DNA of 49,769 nt, counting the filler, from Candidatus Lindowbacteria bacterium RIFCSPLOWO2_12_FULL_62_27 (GTDB lineage Bacteria > Lindowbacteria > 2-12-FULL-62-27): NCBI GenBank assembly GCA_001784175.1. It is 3 parts of 3 records of this genome, joined end to end, with 100 filler letters (N's around TTAATTAATTAA, not from the genome) between each part and the next. Parts side by side here need not be neighbours in the genome. Positions count along the whole stretch, not along the records: positions 38,250 to 49,769 come from MFPR01000042.1; 2 more parts are not named here. One strand, written 5' to 3'. Made by a program: the position numbers and the translations under genes. The notes beneath the pieces were generated by a model. That model saw only the letters and a list, made by a program, of their open reading frames with translations, was not told where the DNA came from and searched no databases. This document shows, in pieces, positions 23,959-49,769 of this stretch. The stretch's first letter is position 1; each line of letters starts with the position of its first letter.

Positions 23959-24058
23959 NNNNNNNNNNNNNNNNNNNNNNNNNNNNNNNNNNNNNNNNNN
24001 NNTTAATTAATTAANNNNNNNNNNNNNNNNNNNNNNNNNNNNNNNNNNNNNNNNNNNN
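23959..24058. other. Artificial contig spacer (N run, TTAATTAATTAA, N run)
   Basis: 100-nt linker carrying a stop-codon cassette, identical in design to the one at 38150-38249. Confidence 0.97.
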
Positions 24059-38149: not shown

Positions 38150-38249
38150 NNNNNNNNNNNNNNNNNNNNNNNNNNNNNNNNNNNNNNNNNNNNTTAATTA
38201 ATTAANNNNNNNNNNNNNNNNNNNNNNNNNNNNNNNNNNNNNNNNNNNN
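38150..38249. other. Artificial contig spacer (N run, TTAATTAATTAA, N run)
   Basis: Same 100-nt linker design as 23959-24058. Confidence 0.97.
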
Positions 38250-39032
38250 GCTGTCCTTGCGGATCAACCCGACGTCGGACTGACCTTCCACGGCGAGGAC
38301 GTTCTTATTTCCGGCCGCCATTCCGAGGAGGAACAGTGGGTCAAATCAGCCCGCGAAAAAGTCCGCAACGCCATCGAAACCACCGGCACCCCGCCCCTGA
38401 GCGAAATGCTGGACCTGGCCCACGGCGAGGGCCTGTGCCACAATGAGACCTCCTTCCGAAAATCCCACGAGATCCTCGATCATGTTATCGAACAGCATCC
38501 CAAAAATGCCCGGGCCTGGAATATCCTCGGTCTTGTGCGGTGGAACGAAAGCGACCTCCCCGGCGCCGAACGCGCATTCCGGAAAGCCATGTCCCTCGAT
38601 CCGGACACCCGCGTCCATCGGGCGAATCTCGGCCATGTCCTTCACGAAATGGGCCGCCCAGAGGATGCCATCCACATCCTTCGCGCCGCCCACACCCGAT
38701 GGCCCGATTATCCCTGTGCCGCCGAACTCTACGCCCGCTCTCTCGAAGCAGCCGGTCAGTATCAAGAGTCGCACGCCGTCCGGACAAAAACCATTGGCAC
38801 ATTCTGTCCGAACGGCGTCATCCCAGCCGGCATCCACCGATATGATATCGCCTGGTTGCTCCGCCTCTACGAAGGCATCGGCGACTCCGCCAAGGTTGAC
38901 GAGTTGTACAAACACAAAAACCTCAGCGCCACTCCGCCGACCGACTCCTCCGCCCAGCCGTACCGCGAGGCCTTGCTGGCCGGCCCGGAATCGCCGGCGC
39001 GCCGACCGGGCAGGCGGTGCAGGGACGGCTGA
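38250..39032 (+). CDS. Tetratricopeptide-repeat protein, probably 5'-truncated
   Basis: The frame is open from the contig start. TPR-like HPKNARAWNILG...AERAFRKAMSLDP...RANLGHVL...GRPEDAI. Confidence 0.65.
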   Translation, partial: AVLADQPDVGLTFHGEDVLISGRHSEEEQWVKSAREKVRNAIETTGTPPLSEMLDLAHGEGLCHNETSFRKSHEILDHVIEQHPKNARAWNILGLVRWNESDLPGAERAFRKAMSLDPDTRVHRANLGHVLHEMGRPEDAIHILRAAHTRWPDYPCAAELYARSLEAAGQYQESHAVRTKTIGTFCPNGVIPAGIHRYDIAWLLRLYEGIGDSAKVDELYKHKNLSATPPTDSSAQPYREALLAGPESPARRPGRRCRDG

Positions 39033-39065
39033 TGCCATGAAACAGGGGTCGGTCAAATTCCTCCC

Positions 39066-39094
39066 TTGTCAGCTTCTCTTTTCAAAAGTAGTCT
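39066..39094 (+). promoter_or_regulatory. Putative sigma70 promoter of the defence operon
   Basis: TTGTCA-17 bp-TAGTCT, followed by GGAGG RBS (39143-39147) and ATG 39158. Confidence 0.5.
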
Positions 39095-39157
39095 GTGCTT
39101 TACTGAGAGGGGATATCGAATAGCGTGGGCTATTCACAGCATGGAGGATTTTATTTG

Positions 39158-41941
39158 ATGGCGACCTCTCAGACGCAACCCATCTCGACGATAGACCTTT
39201 CGCCCGCGCAAGAGCAAATCATCTCCCACCGCGGCGCGCCCCTCCAGATCGTCGCGTGCGCGGGGTCGGGCAAGACCGAATCCATCTCGCGGCGGATTGC
39301 CTCTCTCATCGTCGAGGGCGCCGATCCCGCGTCCATCATCGCGTTCACATTCACAGAAAAGGCGGCCGCCGAACTCAAACAGCGGGTTGTCAAACGCGTT
39401 GAGGAAAAAATGGGCCGCGAGTTTCTCGACCGGCTCGGACCCATGTTCGTCGGAACCATCCACGGCTACTGTTTCCGCCTGCTCCAGCTCAACGTCCCCC
39501 AATACGGCAACCACGACGTTCTCGACGAGCACCGGCATGCCGGTCTCCTGAGCCGCGAATACAAACGGCTGGGGCTGTCCAAACTCGGATCCAAACACTG
39601 GGAACCGATACGGGATTTTATCCGATCGGTTGACGTCATCAGCAACGAGGTGATTGATCCGGCCGCACTAGACGGGACGCCTCTGGGCGAATGCTACCGC
39701 GAGTATCGTGACACGCTCGACCGATACCATTTCCTGAGCTATGGCCTCCTGATCACCTGCGCAATCGAAGCGCTGGAGGATCCGGCCATCTACGAAAAAA
39801 TCCACGGGCCGCTTCGGCATCTCATCGTCGACGAATACCAGGACATCAACCCCGCGCAGGAACGGCTGATTGAACTTCTGGCCCGCGACCCCGTCCAGAT
39901 ATGCGTTGTCGGCGACGACGACCAGTCCATCTATCAGTGGCGCGGGTCGGACATTTCGAACATCCTGAAATTTCAAACCCGCAGATCGACGACACGGGCG
40001 ATCGTACTGGCCGACAACCGCCGGTCCCGCCCGCAGATCGTCCGGACCGCCAACGCGTTCGCGTCGAGCATCCCCGGGCGATTGCCCAAACAGATGCAAC
40101 CGTCCCGGCCCGCCGGCGAGAACGAAATTGTTGCGTGGTCAGCCGATACTGCGGAGGACGAAGCCGACCAAATAGCCGAGACGATTGAGCGTATCCATGC
40201 GAAAGGTTACCGCTACCGCGACATCGCCGTGCTCTTTCGTTCCGTCCGCACGTCTGCGCCGCCTCTCATCGACGCGTTTCGGGCCAGAAACATTCCCTTT
40301 GCCTGTGGCGGCCGCACGGGACTGTTTTTGCATCCCGAAATTTCGTATTTCGGAGAACTTTTTTCGTGGATCGGCGACGGCGACTGGCGGGACGCGCGGT
40401 TCGAACAAAAACGCAAGGCCGATATTGACCGCATTGTTGCCGGTCTCGACGCCTGTTTCGGAAACGGCAAACCCATCCCGGGACTCAAAAAATATATGGA
40501 AGACTGGAAGACCTTCGTGCTCCGCACCCGACAGCCGGTCAGTCTCGTCGGGGATTTTTACAAGCTCCTCTATAAACTCGGCGCGGAGTCCATAAACCTC
40601 GGGACGCAGGAGGGCGCTGCGCGATTCGGCGCGTTCGCGCGGTTTTCCCAACTCCTCGCCGATTTCGAGCACGTCACCCGCCGCGGCCGGTACGACCAGG
40701 AAAACGGCCGGCGCGTATTTCGTCCGGGCCAGGATGGCGGCAAGTTCTATTTCCAGCGGCTTGCCAATTATCTGATCCATTACGCATTCGCCGCCTACGA
40801 GGACTACGAGGGCGAACCGGCGTCCGACCTTGATGCCGTCTCCGTCATGACGGTCCATCAGGCCAAAGGTCTTGAATGGCCGGTCGTGCTTATGCCGGCG
40901 CTGGTGAAGGGCCGCTTTCCGACGTCTCTATGCGGCCGCCCGCAGGAGTGGCTCCTGCCGCCCGGGATTTTCAGCGAACAAACCCGCAAACGCTACGAAG
41001 GAAGCGAGACCGAAGAGCGACGCCTGTTTTACGTCGCCCTCACCCGCGCGCGCGACTGCGTCTATCTGTCATACTTTCAGCGGAAAAAAAATAAATTCAA
41101 ACCGTCGCCGTTACTGACGGAGGTTGCCGGCACAAACATCCTTGCGTTTGCCGTGCTTCCTCTCCCCGGCACGCCGGAGCCGGCCGGCCAGAAGGAAATC
41201 CCGCCGCTTCAAATTTCGTTCTCGCACCTGGCCGCATTCGAGGATTGCGGGCTTCGCTATCAGTTCGGGACCGTTTTCGGATTTCAGCAGGAATTGGCAG
41301 TCGAACTCGGCTACGGCCGCGCAATCCATCATGTCCTTCGCCGGGTGGCGGAGGAGGCGCAAAGCAAGGGCAGTATCCCAACCGCTCCGGAATTGAAGTC
41401 TCTGGTTGATGCTGAATTTTATCTGCCGTTTGCAAACACCCCGGCCTTCGAACAGATGTATCGCTCGGCCACGCGGATGACCCGGCTGTACGTCAACGAT
41501 TATTCCGGCGATCTCATGCGGGTCTGGGCGGTCGAGCGCCCGTTCGAACTGCACTTTGAGGACGGCATCGTGGCCGGCCGCGCCGACGTCATTCTGGATC
41601 GCGAAAACGACACGCCGGGCGCGCTGGCCATCGTCGACTACAAGGTCACGCACGATCCCGAACGCGAGGAACGCTACCGCCGGCAACTGTCCATCTATAC
41701 GGCCGCCGGCCGCGGCGAAGGCCTGCGGGTCGACGCCGCCTATCTGCACGACTTGAGCGACAGCGCGCGCCGGCCGGTGGAGATCGGGCCGGAAGTCTTG
41801 AAAAAGACCGTGCAGGAGGTTTCCATCTCTGTGAAAGCCATTCGGCGGGGGAAATACGAGGCGAATCCAGAAGAGCAAAAATGCCGGGCGTGCGAATTTC
41901 TGACGATCTGCGCCAAACGCGCCTGCCGGGTGGGAGATTGA
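39158..41941 (+). CDS. UvrD/PcrA-like SF1 helicase fused to C-terminal PD-(D/E)XK nuclease with 4-Cys Fe-S staple
   Basis: Helicase motifs ACAGSGKT, TFTEKAA, VDEYQD, GDDDQSIYQWRG, TVHQAKGLEW and EERRLFYVALTRA. Nuclease motifs SFSHL..FEDC, VERPF, GRAD, IVDYK, QLSIY and CRACEFLTIC. Confidence 0.9.
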   Translation: MATSQTQPISTIDLSPAQEQIISHRGAPLQIVACAGSGKTESISRRIASLIVEGADPASIIAFTFTEKAAAELKQRVVKRVEEKMGREFLDRLGPMFVGTIHGYCFRLLQLNVPQYGNHDVLDEHRHAGLLSREYKRLGLSKLGSKHWEPIRDFIRSVDVISNEVIDPAALDGTPLGECYREYRDTLDRYHFLSYGLLITCAIEALEDPAIYEKIHGPLRHLIVDEYQDINPAQERLIELLARDPVQICVVGDDDQSIYQWRGSDISNILKFQTRRSTTRAIVLADNRRSRPQIVRTANAFASSIPGRLPKQMQPSRPAGENEIVAWSADTAEDEADQIAETIERIHAKGYRYRDIAVLFRSVRTSAPPLIDAFRARNIPFACGGRTGLFLHPEISYFGELFSWIGDGDWRDARFEQKRKADIDRIVAGLDACFGNGKPIPGLKKYMEDWKTFVLRTRQPVSLVGDFYKLLYKLGAESINLGTQEGAARFGAFARFSQLLADFEHVTRRGRYDQENGRRVFRPGQDGGKFYFQRLANYLIHYAFAAYEDYEGEPASDLDAVSVMTVHQAKGLEWPVVLMPALVKGRFPTSLCGRPQEWLLPPGIFSEQTRKRYEGSETEERRLFYVALTRARDCVYLSYFQRKKNKFKPSPLLTEVAGTNILAFAVLPLPGTPEPAGQKEIPPLQISFSHLAAFEDCGLRYQFGTVFGFQQELAVELGYGRAIHHVLRRVAEEAQSKGSIPTAPELKSLVDAEFYLPFANTPAFEQMYRSATRMTRLYVNDYSGDLMRVWAVERPFELHFEDGIVAGRADVILDRENDTPGALAIVDYKVTHDPEREERYRRQLSIYTAAGRGEGLRVDAAYLHDLSDSARRPVEIGPEVLKKTVQEVSISVKAIRRGKYEANPEEQKCRACEFLTICAKRACRVGD

Positions 41942-41943
41942 TC

Positions 41944-43035
41944 ATGCTGAAACGAAAAACAAAGGCCTCATCCAAAGTGGTGCGCGGCCGGTCGGTTCCC
42001 CATACGCCGGTAGAAGCGTCGTTTGCCGAAGTGATCAGCCTTATCGAATCCGCGCGCCGGCGGGCATATCAAGCCGTGAACACCGAACTCGTCGGCCTCT
42101 ATTGGCAGGTCGGTGAATACATCAGCCGCAAGTTGGAATCTGCCACATGGGGTGAAGGGGTGGTCGAACAATTGGCCGATTACATCGCGCGCAACCGTCC
42201 AGACATGAGGGGATTCACCCGCGCCAGCCTCTTTAGAATGCGGCAGTTCTATGACACCTATTGCCGGAACAAAAAAGTCGCACCACTGGTGCGACAATTG
42301 CCATGGACCCACCATCTGATGATTCTCGGACGATGCAAGCGTGATGAAGAGCGCGAGTTCTACCTTCGTCTCGCACTACAGGAACGCTGGGGGAAAAGGG
42401 AACTCGAACGCCAGCTCAAAGGCGCCCTATTCGAACGCGCAATCTTGTCACCACCAAAAGTCTCGCCGGTGGTGCGACAATTGCATCCCGCCGCTTTGAC
42501 GGTCTTCAAAGACGCCTACCTGCTGGATTTTCTCGACCTGCCCTCCGGACATTCCGAGGGCGATCTGCAACGCGGATTGGTGAGCGATCTGCGCCGGTTC
42601 CTCATCGAACTGGGCCGCGATTTCTGTTTTGTGGGCGAGGAATATCTCGTCCAGGTCGGCGGCCGGGATTTTCGGCTGGACCTGCTCTTCTATCATCGTG
42701 AACTGCAATGTCTCGTCGCGTTCGAACTCAAGATCGACGAGTTTCAGCCGGAGTATCTTGGGAAACTGGAATTTTACCTTGAGGCGCTCGACCGGGACGT
42801 GCGCAAACCGCATGAGCGTCCTTCCATCGGTGTGCTCCTCTGCGCAACCAAAGACGGCGAGGTCGTCGAGTATGCATTGAGCCGGTCACTCTCCCCCGCG
42901 CTCATCGCCGAGTACAAGACCCGGCTCCCGGACAAGAAACTGCTTCAGTCCAAACTCCACGAGTTCTACGCGCTGGCTGAATCTAATGTCTCGCGCGATG
43001 ACACGCCTCCAAGGCCGAAGCGGCGACGTAAATGA
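41944..43035 (+). CDS. YhcG/DUF1016 family PD-(D/E)XK nuclease
   Basis: AVNTELVGLYWQVG, WGEGVV, LPWTHH, REFY, KDAYLLDFL, FLIELGRDFCFVG, LDLLFYHR and FELK...FQPEYLGKL.FYL. Confidence 0.92.
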   Translation: MLKRKTKASSKVVRGRSVPHTPVEASFAEVISLIESARRRAYQAVNTELVGLYWQVGEYISRKLESATWGEGVVEQLADYIARNRPDMRGFTRASLFRMRQFYDTYCRNKKVAPLVRQLPWTHHLMILGRCKRDEEREFYLRLALQERWGKRELERQLKGALFERAILSPPKVSPVVRQLHPAALTVFKDAYLLDFLDLPSGHSEGDLQRGLVSDLRRFLIELGRDFCFVGEEYLVQVGGRDFRLDLLFYHRELQCLVAFELKIDEFQPEYLGKLEFYLEALDRDVRKPHERPSIGVLLCATKDGEVVEYALSRSLSPALIAEYKTRLPDKKLLQSKLHEFYALAESNVSRDDTPPRPKRRRK

Positions 43036-43068
43036 CAACATACAACCGGAGAATGATAGACTGACCCC

Positions 43069-46043
43069 ATGCCCAGACCTCGAAAATCTTCCGGTACCGG
43101 AGGCGTTAAAACCGCGGACTACCGACACACCGGGAAAAAGCGGACGAATATCCCGACGGCGAAAATGGCGGCCGAGGGGAAAATTCCGGCGGCGCCGAAG
43201 GCGCAATACCACTATAACCCGCACCTGCCGCCGGTTCTGCGGTTTGATCCGGCGGGCAAGGCCGACAAACTGCCCGACCTCATCGCCGCCGCCGGCCGGC
43301 GCGCGCTGACGGCGGACGAACAGAAACTTCTGGCCGAGGCGCTCCGCAACCACCAGCCGTGGCTGGAGTGGGCGACGAAACGGGAACAGCACGACAAGGG
43401 ATTTTTCGAAGTCGATCCGGTGGCGTTGCACATCCACGAACGCGTGAGCGCCCAGGCCATCGTCCGCGCGGCGACGCGCGAGGACGTCCAGCGCAATCTC
43501 TTCGCCGACCCCGAACAGCCGTATCAGGAAGCCGTGCAATTCTACAAACACGACGTCGACTGGGCCAACCGCCTCATCCTCGGCGATTCCCTGCAGGTCA
43601 TGTCATCCCTCGCGCGCCGTGAAAATCTCGCGGGGAAGGTGCAGATGATTTATATGGATCCGCCGTATGGGATTAAGTTTGGGAGCAATTTTCAAGCTGA
43701 AATAAACAGGCAAGAAATGAAAGAGAAAGACTCTGATCTAACTCGACAACCAGAAATGGTCAAAGCATATCGCGATACATGGGTGTTCGGTATTCACTCA
43801 TATTTGTCATATTTACGATCCAGACTGTTCTTATGTAAAGAACTGCTTTCAACGTCGGGCAGCATTTTTGTGCAAATTAGCGATGTTAATGTTCACGTTC
43901 TTCGAAGTATGTTGGACGAAGTCTTCGGATTTTCCAATTTTATTTCACAAATCTCTTTTGCCAAAACTAGTGGTTCTGCTGATAAATATCTTGCTACTAT
44001 CGGAGATTTTCTACTCTGGTATGCAAAAGATAAAGAACAACTTAAATATCGGCAATTACATTTCATCAAGACTGACAAAACATTGGCGCAACAATATCGA
44101 TTCAGAATGCATTCGAATGGCTCGGTTGGTAGAGCCGGAGATCCAAAAACCGAGACCGACGAGCAGTTATTATCCCGATTTATGCCAGACAATCTTACTG
44201 GTCAGGGTGAAAACGGAAATCTTGATGATCAAGAAGTTTGGGGAAAACGATTTCGACCGACGACTGGTAGACACTGGTCGACCACTAATGAGGGAATACG
44301 CCGGCTGTTTCACTGCGAACGACTTTTTCTTAGTGAAGAACGTTTGGCATGGCGTAAGTACGTTTCAGATTATCCAGTGTCTGCGTACGGTAATTTTTGG
44401 ACTGATACGGCTCAAGGTGGCCGCGCGTTTGACAGAGTGTATGTTGTCCAAACAGCCGATAAAATCATCGAACGTTGTGTTCTCATGACCACCGATCCTG
44501 GTGACATCATCCTCGATCCCACCTGCGGTAGCGGGGCCACCGCATACGTTGCAGAGCAATGGGGCCGGCGCTGGATCACGATTGACACGAGCCGGGTCGC
44601 ACTTTCAATAGCGCGCCAGAGACTTCTCACCGCGAAGTATGAGCATTATAAAACTAAGGACGGGTCCGGTAATCCGGCCACTGGATTCAATTACAAGACC
44701 GTGCCGCACATCACGCTCAAAAGCATCGCCCAGAACACCAACCTCGATCCGGTCTTCGCCAAGCACGAGCCGGTTCTCAACGCGACGCTGGCGGCGTGCA
44801 ACAAGGCGCTCGCTTCGGTTTCGGCCGACGCGCGGCGGAAACACTCAAGGCGAAATTGCAGGAAAAGCAGACCCGAGAGGGCAAGCGGTCGATCACCGAC
44901 GCGGACCGGCGGCGGTGGGAATTGCCGGAGAAGAAATTTGAGCATTGGACGGTTCCATTCGATACCGATCCAGACTGGCCCAAGGCACTGCAGACGGCGG
45001 TCGCCGAATACCGCAAGGCGTGGCGGGCGAAAATGGACGAGGTGAACGCCTGCATTTCGGCCAACGCCGAGCAGGAGGAATTGGTCGACCGACCGGAAGT
45101 TTCGAAAGGCGTGCTTCGCGTCAGCGGGCCGTTCACGGTCGAGGGCGTGATGCCGGAGGAGTTGAGTTTGGGCGAAAAGGGTCTTTACGATCCAACGCCC
45201 AACGAATTCGAAGACGATGCTGGCGGGCCGGTGGAGCAGATGAAAAATATTCATGCCTATCTCACGCGCATGGTCCAGTGCCTGCGGTCGGACGGCGTGA
45301 CGTTCATGAACAACCAGCGAAAAAAATTCGCGCGGATCGAGCCGCTGTTTGAGTCCGGCACCGGAAGCATCATTCATGCTGAAGGCGTCTGGGAAGAGCA
45401 GGACGGGGCCGGGCCCAACACGATCGCCGTCGGATTCGGGCCGCAGTACGGGCCGGTGACGGCACAGCAGGTCGAGGAACTTGTGCGGGCGAGCAAACGA
45501 TATGACGAACTTGTGATCGCCGGATTCAGTTTCGACGCCGCCGCCACCAACGCCATTCAAGAGGCCGCCCATCCCAAACTTCGCATCCACCAGGCCTACA
45601 TCCGTCCCGACATCAACCCCGCGATGGACGGCCTCCTCAAAGACACGCCCAACAGCCAGCTCTTCACCGTATTCGGCCAGCCCGACGTCGAAGTCAAAAA
45701 GAACAAGGACGCGGATTTTGTCTGCACGCTCAAAGGCGTCGACATCTACGACCCTCTCACCAGCGCCATTCGTTCTACCGGCGCAGAAAAAGTGGCGGCG
45801 TGGTTTTTGGACACGGACTATGACGGCCGATGTTTCTGCGTCACGCAAGCCTTCTTCCCCGACCAGGACGCATGGGAAAAAATCGCGAAGGCCCTCGGAT
45901 CGAGCGCCGACACCGAAGCGTTCGATGCGTTCAAGGGCACGACCTCCCTGCCGTTTCCGAAAGGCAAGCACAATCGAATCGCCGTCAAGGTGATCGACCC
46001 GCGCGGGAATGAAGTCATGTCGATTCAGACGCTCAAGGACTGA
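43069..46043 (+). pseudogene. mod: Type III-like adenine DNA methyltransferase (Mod), split by a frameshift near 44840 (ORFs 43069-45045 and about 44841-46043)
   Basis: NRLILGDSLQVM, VQMIYMDPPYGIKF (motif IV) and DPTCGSGATA (motif I) lie in frame 1. The family-typical C-terminus (RVSGPFTVE, GPQYGPV, WFLDTDYDGRCF, IAVKVIDPRGNE) continues in the -1 frame. This may be a sequencing error rather than a real lesion. Confidence 0.75.
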
Positions 46044-46044
46044 T

Positions 46045-49000
46045 ATGGCAAAAGGCGTCAAATCTCGCGGCCTGCCGACGCACATGGATGAGCCGCCGGC
46101 GGATTGGGTTCCAACGCAGGCGGTCGATGAACCGGTCATCAACAAACCTTATGAAGAACCGGCCAAACACTGGACGTACAAGGATGGCGTCCCGGACTTA
46201 AAATCTGAACGGCGGCCGGCGAGTTACTACTACAAGACGCGCAAAACCGGCGCGGCGCAGGAAGATCTTTTTGCCGAGGAAGAACGCGCGCTGTTGCCGC
46301 TGGTGAACCGGCTCCGCAAGGACGTGAAACGATGGCGCGCGTCGGCCTATCGGGGCGCGTCGCCGGTGAGCAAGGATCTTCTGGCGTACTGGTGGAGAGC
46401 AGACCGGTCGCGGCGGCTGTTTTTCTGCCAGCTTGAAGCGGTCGAGACGTTCATCTATCTGCTGGAGTTGGCGATTCCGGGCCGACTGCCGAGCACCGGA
46501 TTTAAATCATTTGAAGTCGACGCTGGAAATCTGGATCGACTGCTCAAGGGCGTGCGCCCGGATTTTCCGGAAATTGCGCCGGATTATTGTCCCCGGCTGG
46601 TCGACATTCCCGCCGATGCCGGCCTTCAGGGTTTGCGTCGTCTTGGATGCAAGATGGCGACAGGAAGCGGCAAGACGATTGTGATGGCGATGACGATCGC
46701 GTGGGCATTCTGCAACCGCGGCCGAAATCCGGCCACTCTGCATTTTCCCAATGGCGTTCTTGTCTGCGCGCCGAATCTGACGGTCAAAGAGCGCCTGCAG
46801 GTGCTCCGGCCGGATCATCCTGAAAATTATTACGACGCGTTCGATCTCGTGCCGGCCAAATACCGGGAACTGATGGGCGTGGGCCGGGTGCTGATCACGA
46901 ACTGGCACGTCTTCGCGCCGAAAAGCCCGAACGTCGAGGGCGAAAAGAGTTACAAGATCGTGAACAAGGGCGAGGAGACTGCGGAGGCGTTCGCGAAGGA
47001 TCGTCTCGGGGAACTTGCCGCGCGAACGCCCATTCTCGTGCTGAACGACGAGGGCCATCACTGCTGGCGGCCGAACAACAATTCGGCGTCAAAGGCCGAG
47101 GAGGATTTGACAAAGGAGGAGAAGGCGGAACTGGAGGAGGATGCCGAAGAAGCCCGAGTGTGGCTGGCCGGTCTTGACCGGATCAACAATTCGGGTCTGG
47201 CGGGCGGGAAAAATCCGGGGATTCTTGCGGCGTTGGATCTTTCAGCCACGCCGTTTTATCTATCCAACAGCGGCTATCCGGAAGGTGATCCGTTCCCATG
47301 GCTGGTCAGCGATTTCGGGTTGGTGGATGCCATCGAGTGCGGCATCGTCAAAATCCCGCGTATGCCGGTCCGGGATGAAACGGAATCGAAAGACGAAGTC
47401 GGCCGGCCTGATCCGAAATATTTTCACCTGTGGCGGCATATCAATGACGGCCTTCGGCCGGTGGACCGCGCGGCGAATCGGCGGCCAAAACCGGAGGCGG
47501 TGTATCGCGAGGCCGAAGGCGCGCTTCTGATGCTGGCGGGCCAGTGGAAAAAACGGTTTGAAGAGATTCAGGGCGCAAGTCCGGGGGAGAAGATCATTCC
47601 ACCGGTGTTGATTATCGTTTGCGACAACACCGAGGTGGCCGACATTTTTTATCAGAGAATCAGCGGCGAGCGGGAAGAGGAGGTGTTGGGTGCGGACGGC
47701 AAGAAAGTGGAGAAACGGAAAATATATGAAGCCGGCAAAATTCTTGCGGAGTTTTCGAACACCGAGAATTTCCGGCCCACGGTGCGGATCGACACCAAAC
47801 TTCTGAAAAAAATTGAGACCGAGGAAGGCGAAACCAAAGACGAGGCGGCGCAGGCCTTGCGGGCAATCATCAACACCGTCGGCAAACGCGGCATGCCCGG
47901 CGAGCAAATCCGGTGCGTCGTGTCCGTGGGAATGCTCACCGAAGGGTGGGATGCGACGAATGTGACGCACATTCTCGGCGTGCGGGCGTTTCAGAGTCAA
48001 CTTTTGTGCGAGCAGGTAGTCGGTCGGGGCCTTCGGCGGATGGACTACACCGCGCTGGATCCGGAAGGCCGGCTGGTGGCCGAGCATGTGGATGTCTATG
48101 GGATCCCATTCTCGCTGATTCCGTTCAAGGGCAAGCCGAAAGATATAGAGCGGCCCGACCCCGTCTATCATCACGTATTTGCGGTGCCGGAACGCGCGTC
48201 GCTCGAGATTCGCCTGCCGGTGGTCGAGAGTTACACGTATGATCTGAAGGGCAGCGGGATTTCGTGCGATGTGGACAATCTCGACGACCTGGTGGTGGAC
48301 GATGAGCCGACGAAAGTCTATCTGGCCGTAACGCGCGGCTATCAGGATGACCCCTCCTCCACGCCGTCGGGAGATTTCATCCAGCAAACGCGAGAGAATT
48401 TTTACGCGACGGTACGATTTCAGCAAGTGGTGTTTCGGCTGGCGCAGATGATCGTGGACGATTTGATCGCCGGCGGCCGGGGCGCGGGCGTTGAGGCGCT
48501 TAAAAAGTCGCTTTTAGCCCGGCACCAGGTTTTTCCGGATGTTCTACGGATCGTGCAGGAATACATCAACAAGAAGGTCCGGTTCGTCAAAGGCGTGGAC
48601 CCGAGGGAGCTGGCGCTGGAAAAATATTCTCAACTTCTGCGAGAGCGCGTTCGGGCTGGAATTCTGCCGGCGGCGGCCAGCGCGGAGGCGCCGCTTTTGC
48701 CGGTTGTGAACTCGTACAAGCCCTTCGCCTCGACGACGGACGTGAATTTCCGGACGACCCGGCCAGTAGTGAAACTGGAAAAGAGCCATCTCAATCTCGC
48801 GGTGATCCACAGCGATTGGGAGAAGGACGCGATCGCCATTCTGGAGGACAGCGACGACGTCGAGTTTTTCACACCGAACGACCAGCATGTCGGATTGGTC
48901 GTCCCCTACGATTATCTGGGCGGCCAGCACCACTACGAGCCGGATTTCATCGTGCGCCTGCGCGGCGGCAAAATCCTCCATCTCATTCTGGAGATCAAAG

Positions 49001-49692
49001 GGCGGGCCGGGGAAATCCACGATGAGGACCGCGTGCACGCGAAAAACGCGGCGGCGAAAAAATGGGTGGCCGCGGTCAACAACGCCGGCCGATACGACCG
49101 CTGGAATTTTGAGATCTGCAAGGAACTCGCGAACCTGCGCGTGACGTTGAAGCGCTGCGCTGACGAGGGCGAGCCGGCGGCGGCCAAGGTTGTGCCATTC
49201 CGGTTCGTGACCCCGCGCGCCGGCGAGCATTTCAAGACGTGCGTGCCGCTGGTGAGTCTGCGGGCGGCGGCCTCCAACTTCAGTAATGAACAATTCAGCT
49301 GGGATCAGATGGGAGAATGGGCGGACGAGTGGGTGTCGTTCGAACCAAAGACGCGCTTTGAGGATGGAATGTTTGTCGCCCGAATTCGCGGCGACTCGAT
49401 GGAACCGACGATCCCGGCGTCTGCCTACTGTCTATTCCGCAGGCCTCGGCCCGGGTCGCGGCAGGGGCGGATCGTGTTTGTGATGCACTCGGGCGTGAGC
49501 GACCCATTCACGGGCGGCCAGTACACGGTGAAAGAATATTCGAGCGAAAAAGCCGTGGACCCCGAGACGGACTGGCATCACACGCGGATCACCCTGAAAC
49601 CGCACAACCGAAAATACGACCCGATCGTTCTGACGCCGGAGGCCGAGGATGAGGTGCGGGTGATCGCGGAGTGGGTGGAGGTTGTGGGTTAA
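46045..49692 (+). CDS. res: Type III-like restriction endonuclease (SF2 helicase + PD-(D/E)XK) with C-terminal LexA/S24-like peptidase domain
   Basis: LFFCQLEAVET, KMATGSGKT, NDEGHH, LSATP, MLTEGWD and EQVVGRGLRR helicase motifs. YEPDFIV...LEIKG nuclease. C-terminal RGDSMEP...YTVK...LKPHN.KYDPI (S24 Ser-Lys dyad). Confidence 0.9.
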   Translation: MAKGVKSRGLPTHMDEPPADWVPTQAVDEPVINKPYEEPAKHWTYKDGVPDLKSERRPASYYYKTRKTGAAQEDLFAEEERALLPLVNRLRKDVKRWRASAYRGASPVSKDLLAYWWRADRSRRLFFCQLEAVETFIYLLELAIPGRLPSTGFKSFEVDAGNLDRLLKGVRPDFPEIAPDYCPRLVDIPADAGLQGLRRLGCKMATGSGKTIVMAMTIAWAFCNRGRNPATLHFPNGVLVCAPNLTVKERLQVLRPDHPENYYDAFDLVPAKYRELMGVGRVLITNWHVFAPKSPNVEGEKSYKIVNKGEETAEAFAKDRLGELAARTPILVLNDEGHHCWRPNNNSASKAEEDLTKEEKAELEEDAEEARVWLAGLDRINNSGLAGGKNPGILAALDLSATPFYLSNSGYPEGDPFPWLVSDFGLVDAIECGIVKIPRMPVRDETESKDEVGRPDPKYFHLWRHINDGLRPVDRAANRRPKPEAVYREAEGALLMLAGQWKKRFEEIQGASPGEKIIPPVLIIVCDNTEVADIFYQRISGEREEEVLGADGKKVEKRKIYEAGKILAEFSNTENFRPTVRIDTKLLKKIETEEGETKDEAAQALRAIINTVGKRGMPGEQIRCVVSVGMLTEGWDATNVTHILGVRAFQSQLLCEQVVGRGLRRMDYTALDPEGRLVAEHVDVYGIPFSLIPFKGKPKDIERPDPVYHHVFAVPERASLEIRLPVVESYTYDLKGSGISCDVDNLDDLVVDDEPTKVYLAVTRGYQDDPSSTPSGDFIQQTRENFYATVRFQQVVFRLAQMIVDDLIAGGRGAGVEALKKSLLARHQVFPDVLRIVQEYINKKVRFVKGVDPRELALEKYSQLLRERVRAGILPAAASAEAPLLPVVNSYKPFASTTDVNFRTTRPVVKLEKSHLNLAVIHSDWEKDAIAILEDSDDVEFFTPNDQHVGLVVPYDYLGGQHHYEPDFIVRLRGGKILHLILEIKGRAGEIHDEDRVHAKNAAAKKWVAAVNNAGRYDRWNFEICKELANLRVTLKRCADEGEPAAAKVVPFRFVTPRAGEHFKTCVPLVSLRAAASNFSNEQFSWDQMGEWADEWVSFEPKTRFEDGMFVARIRGDSMEPTIPASAYCLFRRPRPGSRQGRIVFVMHSGVSDPFTGGQYTVKEYSSEKAVDPETDWHHTRITLKPHNRKYDPIVLTPEAEDEVRVIAEWVEVVG

Positions 49693-49697
49693 GAAGC

Positions 49698-49769
49698 ATG
49701 CCCGCTAAGATAATTTCACGACGTTTGGAAGCGGGAGAGGGATTTCCAGCGTCTGCGGGCTTTGCAGAA
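49698..49769 (+). CDS. Possible start of a downstream gene, truncated by the window end
   Basis: ATG 5 bp after the res stop, with the frame open to the end (MPAKIISRRLEAGEG...). Too short to identify. Confidence 0.3.
   Translation, partial: MPAKIISRRLEAGEGFPASAGFAE

Follow-up and report, generated by a model that had tools for sequence, protein, structure and literature searches.

A type III-like restriction–modification locus of a Lindowbacteria genome with a Cas4-like helicase–nuclease gene and a LexA-like S24 module, a putative self-cleavage switch, on its Res subunit

The question raised by the locus described here is why a type III-like restriction–modification (RM) operon should hold a UvrD-type helicase–nuclease, a YhcG nuclease and a Res subunit that ends in a LexA-like S24 module. 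The locus lies in a 49,769-nt stretch of DNA from Candidatus Lindowbacteria bacterium RIFCSPLOWO2_12_FULL_62_27, referred to here as the window. A sequence-only reading of the window had taken the four genes for a single composite defence unit, in which the helicase–nuclease resects breaks made by Res, and RecA, loaded on the resulting single strand, feeds back on the S24 domain. Our comparisons favor another explanation, namely a type III-like RM system of the BPTD_3080 Res family, with a Mod of ~1000 aa and a Res of ~1050 aa, to which two separable add-ons (the helicase–nuclease gene and the S24 module) and one unrelated insert (yhcG) have been joined. Taken as a whole, we give this explanation a probability of roughly 0.55.

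The helicase–nuclease open reading frame (ORF) opens with a GTG at 39125, and its likely start is the ATG at 39158, with a GGAGG at 39144-39148 ahead of it. The encoded protein matches the Pfam families UvrD-helicase (8.6e-57), UvrD_C (2.7e-37), PDDEXK_1 (2.2e-22) and Cas_Cas4 (4.1e-4), the nuclease domain being encoded at ~41210-41911, and its best sequence matches in the PDB are PcrA, UvrD1 and UvrD (1e-51 to 1e-47), with AdnB at 7e-30. The superfamily 1 (SF1) helicase motifs and residues D821, D838 and K840 are kept in 62-64 of 64 distinct homologues, and the four Fe–S-type cysteines C708, C920, C923 and C929 in 62 of the 64. Together, the Pfam domains and the conserved cysteines bear out the earlier identification of a UvrD–Fe–S nuclease, and the combination of an N-terminal UvrD SF1 helicase, a C-terminal pfam12705 nuclease and Cas4-like cysteines is that of the UvrD–Cas4-like fusions. 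Scores against the NCBIfam equivalogs AddA, RecB, PcrA and UvrD lie far under their cut-offs (for PcrA, 253 versus 911 bits), and the contig holds no partner helicase–nuclease gene of the kind that a two- or three-subunit AddAB, AdnAB or RecBCD enzyme would include. Membership in Gabija or DRT was also considered and rejected, as the PADLOC matches (GajB models, residues ~24-400) span only the generic UvrD core; no GajA-like gene that could complete a Gabija pair was found on the contig by ORF, Pfam and PADLOC scans.

Type III RM systems cleave DNA in an ATP-dependent manner at two inversely oriented unmodified sites, while their Mod subunit hemimethylates the target. At the locus, a mod gene with an N6_N4_Mtase domain and a match to the PADLOC MTase_III profile stands directly upstream of res, with a 1-nt gap. 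Res is weakly recognized by Pfam (RE_endonuc, 3.7e-3; ResIII, 22.2 bits, under the cut-off of 22.5), and its body has no sequence match in the PDB. It scores 877 bits over residues 204-1049 against the NCBIfam model NF046055, ‘BPTD_3080 family restriction endonuclease’ (cut-off 800), and its Walker A, DEGHH and motif VI elements, together with PD979 and E995-x-K997, are invariant in 118/118 homologues, as expected of a superfamily 2 (SF2) helicase with a C-terminal PD-(D/E)XK nuclease. The sequence-only reading had counted two helicases, three PD-(D/E)XK nucleases, a methyltransferase and an S24 domain; all are present, the third nuclease, that of Res, being weak in Pfam and secured by NF046055 and the invariant residues. 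The best 120 listed full-length Res homologues, the window's own included, are ~1200 aa long except for three of 1030-1160 aa; the relatives among them share 56-69% identity, and most are flagged with PF00717. A literature search on the BPTD_3080 family found nothing. A BPTD_3080-type Res occurs in 45 plasmid records, and in the 12 of these that were listed the match stops short of the S24 part. One such locus, on the Thermus brockianus plasmid pTbrSNM4-1b (L163; NZ_AP025594.1 254280-267739), reads Mod–DUF3800–Res; it has neither the S24 module nor the fused helicase–nuclease, and 1.4 kb further downstream the opposite strand encodes a UvrD-helicase and a PD-(D/E)XK protein as separate genes.

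Recurrent linkage of the helicase–nuclease to this Mod/Res family had been set beforehand as the test of the prediction, and it was found from both directions. All five proteins of the third contig's locus were located by tblastn in 80 genome loci of Res relatives (forward survey) and in 79 non-self metagenome loci of helicase–nuclease relatives (reverse survey). In the forward survey, in which 30 loci were not assessable, the helicase–nuclease lies upstream in 16 of the 17 assessable loci with an S24-bearing Res; in the remaining one (L017), an 8-kb insertion parts mod from res, and the relevant upstream DNA is off the locus. Among the genome loci that lack S24, 6 have the helicase–nuclease and 27 have neither. 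In the reverse survey, relatives with at least 50% identity and at least 3 kb of downstream DNA are followed on the same strand by this Mod family in 22/25 cases, as against 2/9 at 40-50% identity. The gap between the UvrD-nuclease and Mod genes is at most 105 nt in 17 of the 32 measured. On a FastTree tree of 79 Res bodies, from which the S24 part had been removed, the S24-bearing Res group together in a single clade (21 rows, support 100), in which every assessable row has the UvrD-nuclease. Another clade (10 rows, support 100), whose six genome loci are planctomycetes and which also includes three metagenome loci, contains nine rows with a UvrD-nuclease and no S24; its tenth row (L056) has the S24 module, and its upstream DNA is too short to assess the UvrD-nuclease. 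The distant locus pair L147/L148 also has the helicase–nuclease. Across loci, identity to the window proteins falls in parallel, from 65% to 36% for Res and from 63% to 46% for the UvrD-nuclease, which fits long co-inheritance. The core is thus three genes, the helicase–nuclease, the long Mod and Res, and these sequence comparisons indicate that the helicase–nuclease is a long-standing accessory of this Mod/Res lineage.

The coupling of the helicase–nuclease to Mod/Res is correct but already published as a genome-context prediction. In the main text of Hudaiberdiev et al. 2017 (BMC Evol Biol 17:232, PMC5704561), UvrD–Cas4-like fusions are described as monophyletic, with type III Mod and Res as their commonest neighbourhood and Dcm, often with Vsr, as a second context; stand-alone and non-conserved contexts are mentioned as well, and the fusion is regarded as probably ancillary to several defence systems. 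Both contexts recur among our loci, the type III one in the 22/25 close relatives and in 22 genome loci, the other in three distant loci (L151, L154 and L158) that hold Dcm, Vsr and an NgoMIV-like enzyme. The locus had earlier been called a composite that could not be recognized as a named system. This holds in so far as no named multi-gene system was matched in PADLOC 2.0, but the UvrD–Cas4/type III association was in print (PMC5704561). The main text of that paper contains no S24, LexA, peptidase, protease, DUF1016 or YhcG, and we found no experimental study of UvrD–Cas4 fusions in the literature.

These neighbourhoods can also be read in another way, in which the UvrD-nuclease acts in defence or repair on its own, shares a defence island with Mod and Res and has no mechanistic tie to cutting by Res. 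Its position next to the Dcm/Vsr/NgoMIV-type system in L151, L154 and L158 would fit, as would L090, where it stands beside a D12 methylase–HerA–NurA set with no Mod within 10 kb, the insertions that part it from mod in several loci, and the stand-alone or non-conserved contexts of PMC5704561. However, mere neighbours would hardly be expected to keep a fixed order and strand, with short gaps in 17/32 cases, nor to be linked to Mod in 22/25 close relatives and to diverge in step with Res, as co-inherited genes do. We therefore consider this alternative improbable, the least likely of those weighed here, and retain the helicase–nuclease as an accessory of the RM system.

The inclusion of YhcG is a different matter. 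In the four-gene composite, YhcG would serve as a third nuclease arm, and the tight spacing and single orientation of the genes speak for it. Its product matches DUF1016_N (1.4e-42) and YhcG_C (2.7e-54) in Pfam, and in PADLOC it matches the PDC-S02 profile (PDLC04795, 1.4e-132) over the full length, residues 41-368 aligning with positions 21-349 of 357. However, YhcG stands between the UvrD-nuclease and Mod in 0/53 related loci having both genes, and elsewhere among the surveyed loci it occurs only in L008 and L074, both of which are without the helicase–nuclease. This places YhcG outside the core, as a lineage-specific insertion, and the proposed four-gene unit cannot be upheld. The same genome encodes a YhcG paralogue between hsdM and hsdS of a type I operon, which argues that YhcG genes settle inside RM operons as guests. 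Judged by sequence, YhcG is an independent PD-(D/E)XK gene inserted at the UvrD–mod junction.

The junction itself is a landing place for varied cargo. A cassette of a D12-class adenine methylase, a HerA-like ATPase and a NurA-like nuclease occupies it in L099, L101, L104, L111 and L136. In L013 and L014 the cargo is a PLD-like gene, and in L036 and L126 an RNase_T exonuclease with DUF1643. The D12 methylase–HerA–NurA cassette, sometimes with an additional 180-aa ORF, also follows the UvrD-nuclease in L090 and L092, whereas L025, L124, L126 and L127 have a HerA–NurA pair and an N6_N4 methylase ahead of the UvrD-nuclease.

The second add-on is the C-terminal end of Res. Counting residues from the frame opening at 46009, Peptidase_S24 (Pfam, 5.7e-9) covers residues 1099-1221, and the module extends over approximately residues 1061-1227. 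It contains a strand that resembles a LexA cleavage site, VPLVSLRAAA|S in the window Res (49243-49275), followed by the codons of Ser1130 (49396-49398, in GDSMEP) and Lys1175 (49531-49533, in Y-T-V-K), so that the Ser/Lys dyad of the S24 fold is present. Across the family, the strand reads C-V-P-L-[TV]-[ST]-L-R-A-A-A-G, again followed by GDSMEP and Y-T-V-K. In an alignment of 119 rows, two of which are the window's own protein, A1088 is found in 112/119, Ser1130 in 107/119 and Lys1175 in 103/119, with position 1089 being G in 91 rows, S in 11 and R in 9. Seven lineages (L012, L016, L024, L034, L038, L106 and L119) have lost Ser (to Ala), Lys (to Arg) and AAAG jointly, as would be expected if the three act as one cleavage device; these dyad-less lineages keep both the module and the upstream UvrD-nuclease.

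In support of this assignment, an AlphaFold2 model of the module built from 24 sequences reached a pLDDT of 87.3 and a pTM of 0.80, and all of its Foldseek matches in the PDB at E ≤0.01 are LexA, lambda cI or UmuD (best, 3k2z_A at 1.3e-5), including fragments that contain the cleavage-site region. By sequence alone the S24 region finds nothing relevant in the PDB, and its profile gives marginal LexA matches only (E 0.15). A predicted complex of two S24 copies scored 0.00 and is not used as evidence. On the strength of the model and the conserved motifs, the end of Res is predicted to be a complete LexA-like module.

This module extends well beyond the type III enzymes. Its profile gave 258 matches to longer proteins, of which the best 120 are listed, all at E ≤4e-55. 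Most of these 120 are type III Res. Also among the matches listed, the module ends type I HsdR (P0159, P0180), type ISP enzymes (P0154, P0174, P0177, P0178, P0181 and P0182, plus fragments), eight MmeI/Eco57I-like methylase-nucleases and five DEAD+MZB helicases of ~1970 aa. Further carriers are a HIT–SNF2 protein, a Schlafen-type helicase and an AAA_15/SMC-type ATPase. All 28 of the 28 non-Res fusions retain the C[VI]P...AAAG strand and GxSM[ED]P, with V or T as the third residue before the cut in three and S for the opening C in one. Against 1.84 billion cluster representatives, the profile found 391 clusters (50% identity) at E ≤1e-30, with the module almost always at the extreme C-terminus, and phage records gave no match to it. 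Sequence comparison thus indicates a widespread, portable add-on of NTP-driven restriction enzymes. A description of an S24/LexA-like module on restriction enzymes was not found in the literature searched with S24/LexA and restriction terms, so that, as far as we could find described, the S24 module on Res is the new part of this locus, whereas the linkage of the helicase–nuclease was already known.

The genome analysed here carries the module three times, on Res, on a type I HsdR (contig C4) and on a DruE-like helicase (contig C16), and it also encodes RecA and two LexA-sized S24 proteins. The HsdR of 1199 aa (G000:C4:384505-388104, − strand; L162 7506-11102) matches the PADLOC REase_I profile over positions 4-1024 of 1029, with the S24 module (...CIPLYSLKAAAGKF...GESMN...YTVK) lying beyond. 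Its operon reads HsdM, the YhcG paralogue, HsdS, a 23S_rRNA_IVP protein, an NsnB/AriA-like AAA ATPase, a 159-aa ORF and HsdR. The third carrier is a 1986-aa DEAD + Helicase_C + MZB(DUF1998) protein with an S24 end (G000:C16:15459-21440, + strand; L161 7484-13441); its best PADLOC match is Druantia DruE (2.4e-98). Upstream of its gene are those of a type IIG/DrmMI-like methylase and of a TPR protein of 1435 aa that matches UvrD_C_2 weakly. In two of the metagenome loci, a 781-aa Schlafen-group-3 helicase (L090:957-3302 and L092:1724-4069), itself behind a MazG-like gene, stands directly upstream of the UvrD-nuclease and has an S24-like C-terminal stretch (E 1e-6 to the module profile).

From these observations, we infer that the S24 module may be a RecA-triggered self-cleavage switch for restriction alleviation. 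RecBCD degrades restricted DNA; at this locus, the helicase–nuclease would unwind and degrade DNA from Res-made breaks, destroying phage DNA, and on the host chromosome it would yield a 3′ single strand on which RecA could load. RecA filaments formed after DNA damage would then stimulate self-cleavage of S24 at AAA|G, removing the module and leaving Res with an ...AAA carboxy-terminus. The cleaved Res would be inactivated or degraded while Mod survives, which would amount to a built-in, SOS-coupled restriction alleviation. Loss of the cleaved Res is supported by two precedents: cleavage of LexA between Ala84 and Gly85 uncovers residues that direct the protein to ClpXP and Lon (Neher et al. 2003, as cited in PMC6590174), and degradation of HsdR by ClpXP is the mechanism of EcoKI restriction alleviation (PMC4231737).

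The sequence-only reading had placed resection, RecA and S24 in one loop, with Res cutting, the UvrD-nuclease resecting and RecA feeding back on S24. The joint presence of S24 and the UvrD-nuclease in 16/17 assessable S24 loci and the RecA encoded in this genome speak for such a composite. Yet the UvrD-nuclease accompanies an S24-less Res in a separate clade, with 6 genome loci, and S24 ends type ISP and IIL enzymes elsewhere, as well as the HsdR and the DruE-like helicase of this genome, next to which no Cas4-type UvrD-nuclease was called. Since each part occurs without the other, the loop explains neither part alone. Moreover, the co-occurrence of S24 and the UvrD-nuclease amounts to few independent events, one clade plus L056. 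The loop is compatible with the switch described above and may still operate as a local circuit, but it is not the reason for either part, and the composite with YhcG as a further arm appears unlikely.

A further alternative concerns the direction of the switch. Cleavage might activate Res, as a licence of the UmuD to UmuD′ kind, or the module might act without cleavage, by dimerization or by docking to RecA filaments. That catalytically dead variants retain the module would agree with the latter. However, at least 33 related Res lack the module, and EcoP15I-type type III enzymes are active without one, so that a Res body needs no licence; the conservation of Ser, Lys and AAAG in 28/28 non-Res fusions argues for real cleavage in most members. 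In the available text of PMC6590174, the C-terminal domains of UmuD and LexA dimerize and UmuD is activated by cleavage, which gives this alternative a precedent, and overall we regard it as doubtful. The off-switch is preferred, given the at least 33 related Res that lack the module and the fact that nearly all carriers are methylation-based restriction enzymes. Such enzymes run a standing risk of self-restriction after damage.

Whether the locus still works in this organism depends on mod, which consists of two overlapping frames (43069-45045 and 44796-46043), frame 1 running out of register until its stop at 45045. By blastx against eight single-ORF relatives, the match leaves frame 1 and continues in frame 3 somewhere within 44826-44877, and the match of the N-part to intact relatives extends to approximately residue 603. 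The PADLOC MTase_III profile PDLC03632 (983 positions) is correspondingly divided, the N part covering 17-541 (4.1e-118) and the C part 613-980 (1.3e-41), and the C-part, which belongs to no Pfam family, shares 60-72% identity with the C-terminal part of single-ORF Mods. Contigs independently assembled from four public runs (four studies) span the frameshift with 0 differences and 0 gaps, although these are contigs and not reads, in which minority alleles are hidden, and three of the runs may be the source of this assembly. Their agreement makes an error of one assembly unlikely, and we rejected it. Two other explanations were set aside: phase variation, as no simple-sequence repeat lies at the shift, and programmed frameshifting, as no slippery motif was seen, by eye only. 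The earlier observation that mod is broken is thus confirmed. Type III Res of the EcoP15I kind depends on Mod for finding its target sites, so that, with mod frameshifted, this population probably does not restrict, except if Mod can function in two pieces.

The locus could be a decayed remnant, dead in this organism and without a present function to look for, a view that is compatible with the preferred explanation of the family and that we hold to be about evenly balanced. Beside the frameshift in the contigs of all four runs, the mod N-part has a G+C of 0.52-0.54 versus ~0.60 around it, and the contig is short, with all run contigs breaking at 49726. However, the other three genes, for the UvrD-nuclease, YhcG and Res, are intact and lack none of their catalytic motifs, and Mods split at a similar point in L005, L026 and L045 leave room for a tolerated two-piece Mod, or for assembly errors. 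Six other loci in all have a Mod divided between two called ORFs, these three plus L021, L070 and L119. In the former three, the split falls near residue 560-610, close to the window break (558+524, 608+472 and 580+441, respectively). Such splits may be tolerated, may reflect a fragile linker of low complexity or may be errors of assembly.

Several points weigh against the proposed explanation and its mechanism. The helicase–nuclease is not obligatorily tied to Mod/Res, as shown by cassettes of 1-5 kb between the UvrD-nuclease and mod in several relatives and by at least three close helicase–nuclease relatives (L090, L112 and L115) that have at least 4 kb of downstream DNA without a Mod there. 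Other AddAB/AdnAB-like PDDEXK_1 genes are present in the genome, which would make a resection role of the helicase–nuclease redundant. The window's own cleavage site is A|S and not A|G, and two of the 11/119 rows with S are its own. About one in ten Res–S24 members are without the catalytic residues yet keep the module, which points to an additional, cleavage-independent role. Since both the helicase and the nuclease domain of Res would come through cleavage whole, inactivation must rest on a putative degron or on the loss of an assembly function. The confirmation of the frameshift has the dependence on contigs and on possibly shared runs described above, and the roles proposed for the helicase–nuclease and the S24 switch are derived from sequence, a predicted model and analogy.

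The avoidance of self-killing is poorly understood in restriction systems other than EcoKI-type type I, and the host is at risk whenever damage, recombination or a new acquisition creates unmodified sites. An S24 module on the motor/nuclease subunit of at least five restriction/defence enzyme classes, with dyad and scissile site conserved, makes a direct post-translational link between SOS and restriction a testable hypothesis. Extending this, the module could tentatively serve NTP-driven restriction enzymes of types I, ISP, IIL and III, and DruE-like helicases too, as a portable self-destruct switch of general use, in which RecA-triggered AAA|G cleavage would expose an ...AAA, ssrA-like tag for ClpXP/Lon while the methylase survives. 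This would constitute an autonomous, SOS-coupled restriction alleviation; in type III, UvrD–Cas4 resection of self-inflicted breaks would feed the signal and so complete a negative feedback loop that would also start recombinational repair. We rate this broader proposal well below the explanation of the locus itself. The module also offers a functional handle on the UvrD–Cas4 accessory gene, known since 2017 from genome context only. This organism itself holds an ordinary, probably inactive member of the family with an unrelated nuclease gene inserted.

The window consists of three contigs joined by N44-TTAATTAATTAA-N44 linkers at 23959-24058 and 38150-38249, and ORFs that seem to cross the linkers are artefacts. 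The locus occupies the entire third contig (G000:C42, 11,520 bp, window start 38250), so that the DNA before 38250 is no true neighbour; the contig runs only 77 bp past the Res stop. Its G+C is 0.583 versus ~0.61 genome-wide, in a draft genome of 4.39 Mb in 44 contigs. All four genes are in the same orientation on the + strand (Table 1), and the junction sequences agree exactly with the gaps of 2, 33 and 1 bp given before: TGA 41939-41941, 2 nt and ATG 41944 between the UvrD-nuclease and YhcG; TGA 43033-43035, 33 nt and ATG 43069 between YhcG and mod; and TGA 46041-46043, 1 nt and ATG 46045 between mod and res. A candidate promoter that had been proposed ahead of the first gene was not reproduced, a sigma-70 scan giving no + strand site upstream of 39158 and 5 sites on the whole contig versus 4.1 expected; promoter and terminator counts on the contig are at chance level.

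Table 1. Features of the third contig, in window coordinates
Feature	Coordinates	Strand	Basis
TPR-repeat protein gene, 3′ part, truncated at contig start (context only)	38250..39032	+	Pfam TPR_19 5.1e-12, other TPR families
UvrD (SF1) helicase with Cas4-like PD-(D/E)XK nuclease, 927 aa	39158..41941	+	Pfam, PDB matches, motif conservation
YhcG/DUF1016 PD-(D/E)XK protein, 363 aa	41944..43035	+	Pfam, PADLOC PDC-S02
mod, N-terminal part (methyltransferase domain), frame 1	43069..44877	+	Pfam N6_N4_Mtase 9.5e-32; PADLOC; blastx
mod, frame-switch zone, frame 1 to frame 3	44826..44877	+	blastx against 8 intact Mod relatives
mod, C-terminal part, ~400 aa, frame 3; ORF open from GTG 44796	44841..46043	+	PADLOC MTase_III
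Type III-like Res, BPTD_3080 family, 1215 aa, with C-terminal S24 module	46045..49692	+	NCBIfam NF046055
Predicted LexA-like S24 module of Res	49189..49689	+	Pfam, conservation, AlphaFold2, Foldseek

In the run contigs, strain-level variants cluster at 38946-39161, upstream of the first gene, and at 43012-43182, at the YhcG/mod junction. Run X4 contains a second contig with 11 differences at about one third of the depth, and the longest listed contigs of all four runs stop at 49726. The variant clusters, the 49726 break and the low-G+C mod N-part look like recombination seams of a mosaic island. The middle contig (24059-38149, + strand) is a single ORF open at both ends, read as 4694 aa and rich in bacterial Ig-like repeats (Big_13 1.1e-140, Big_3_2, Ig_Rha78A_N), which mark it as part of a giant protein of a surface or adhesin-like kind.

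Compared with known systems, the locus shares with canonical type III enzymes (EcoP1I/EcoP15I) the order of mod before res, an N6_N4 Mod and a Res with an SF2 helicase and a C-terminal PD...ExK nuclease. It differs in its Mod of ~1000 aa, which has an extra C-terminal domain of 400 aa without a Pfam family, in its divergent Res, which falls just below the Pfam ResIII cut-off and finds no PDB chain by sequence, and in the addition of the S24 module on Res and the helicase–nuclease gene. With AddAB, AdnAB and RecBCD it has in common a UvrD-type SF1 motor joined to a RecB/Cas4-type nuclease, with Fe–S cysteines as in AddB and Cas4; however, the locus has a single gene, with no partner subunit on the contig, and this gene adjoins an RM system and not repair genes. 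The window YhcG matches the PDC-S02 profile, and its paralogue is likewise embedded in an RM operon, but this Mod/Res family does not have YhcG as a conserved partner (0/53). The system described in the main text of PMC5704561 has the same SF1 UvrD + pfam12705 fusion and the same Mod-then-Res neighbourhood; what is additional in the window locus is that Res ends in S24, that yhcG is inserted and that mod is broken.

The Res module itself is predicted to share with LexA, UmuD and lambda cI the fold, the Ser/Lys dyad in GDSMEP and TVK, and, in its consensus, the upstream Ala-Gly strand. Unlike these proteins, it is without a DNA-binding domain and forms the C-terminal end of large restriction motors; its site is AAA|G in a C-V-P-L...L-x-A-A-A-G strand (A|S in the window), and the sequence similarity is marginal. 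Finally, the proposed switch resembles EcoKI alleviation, as described in the available text of PMC4231737, in the post-translational removal of the motor/nuclease subunit, which shields the host chromosome once unmodified sites appear, and HsdR itself carries the module in the genome analysed here. In EcoKI, HsdR is without an S24 module and the degron is unidentified in that text, whereas here the predicted trigger is self-cleavage.

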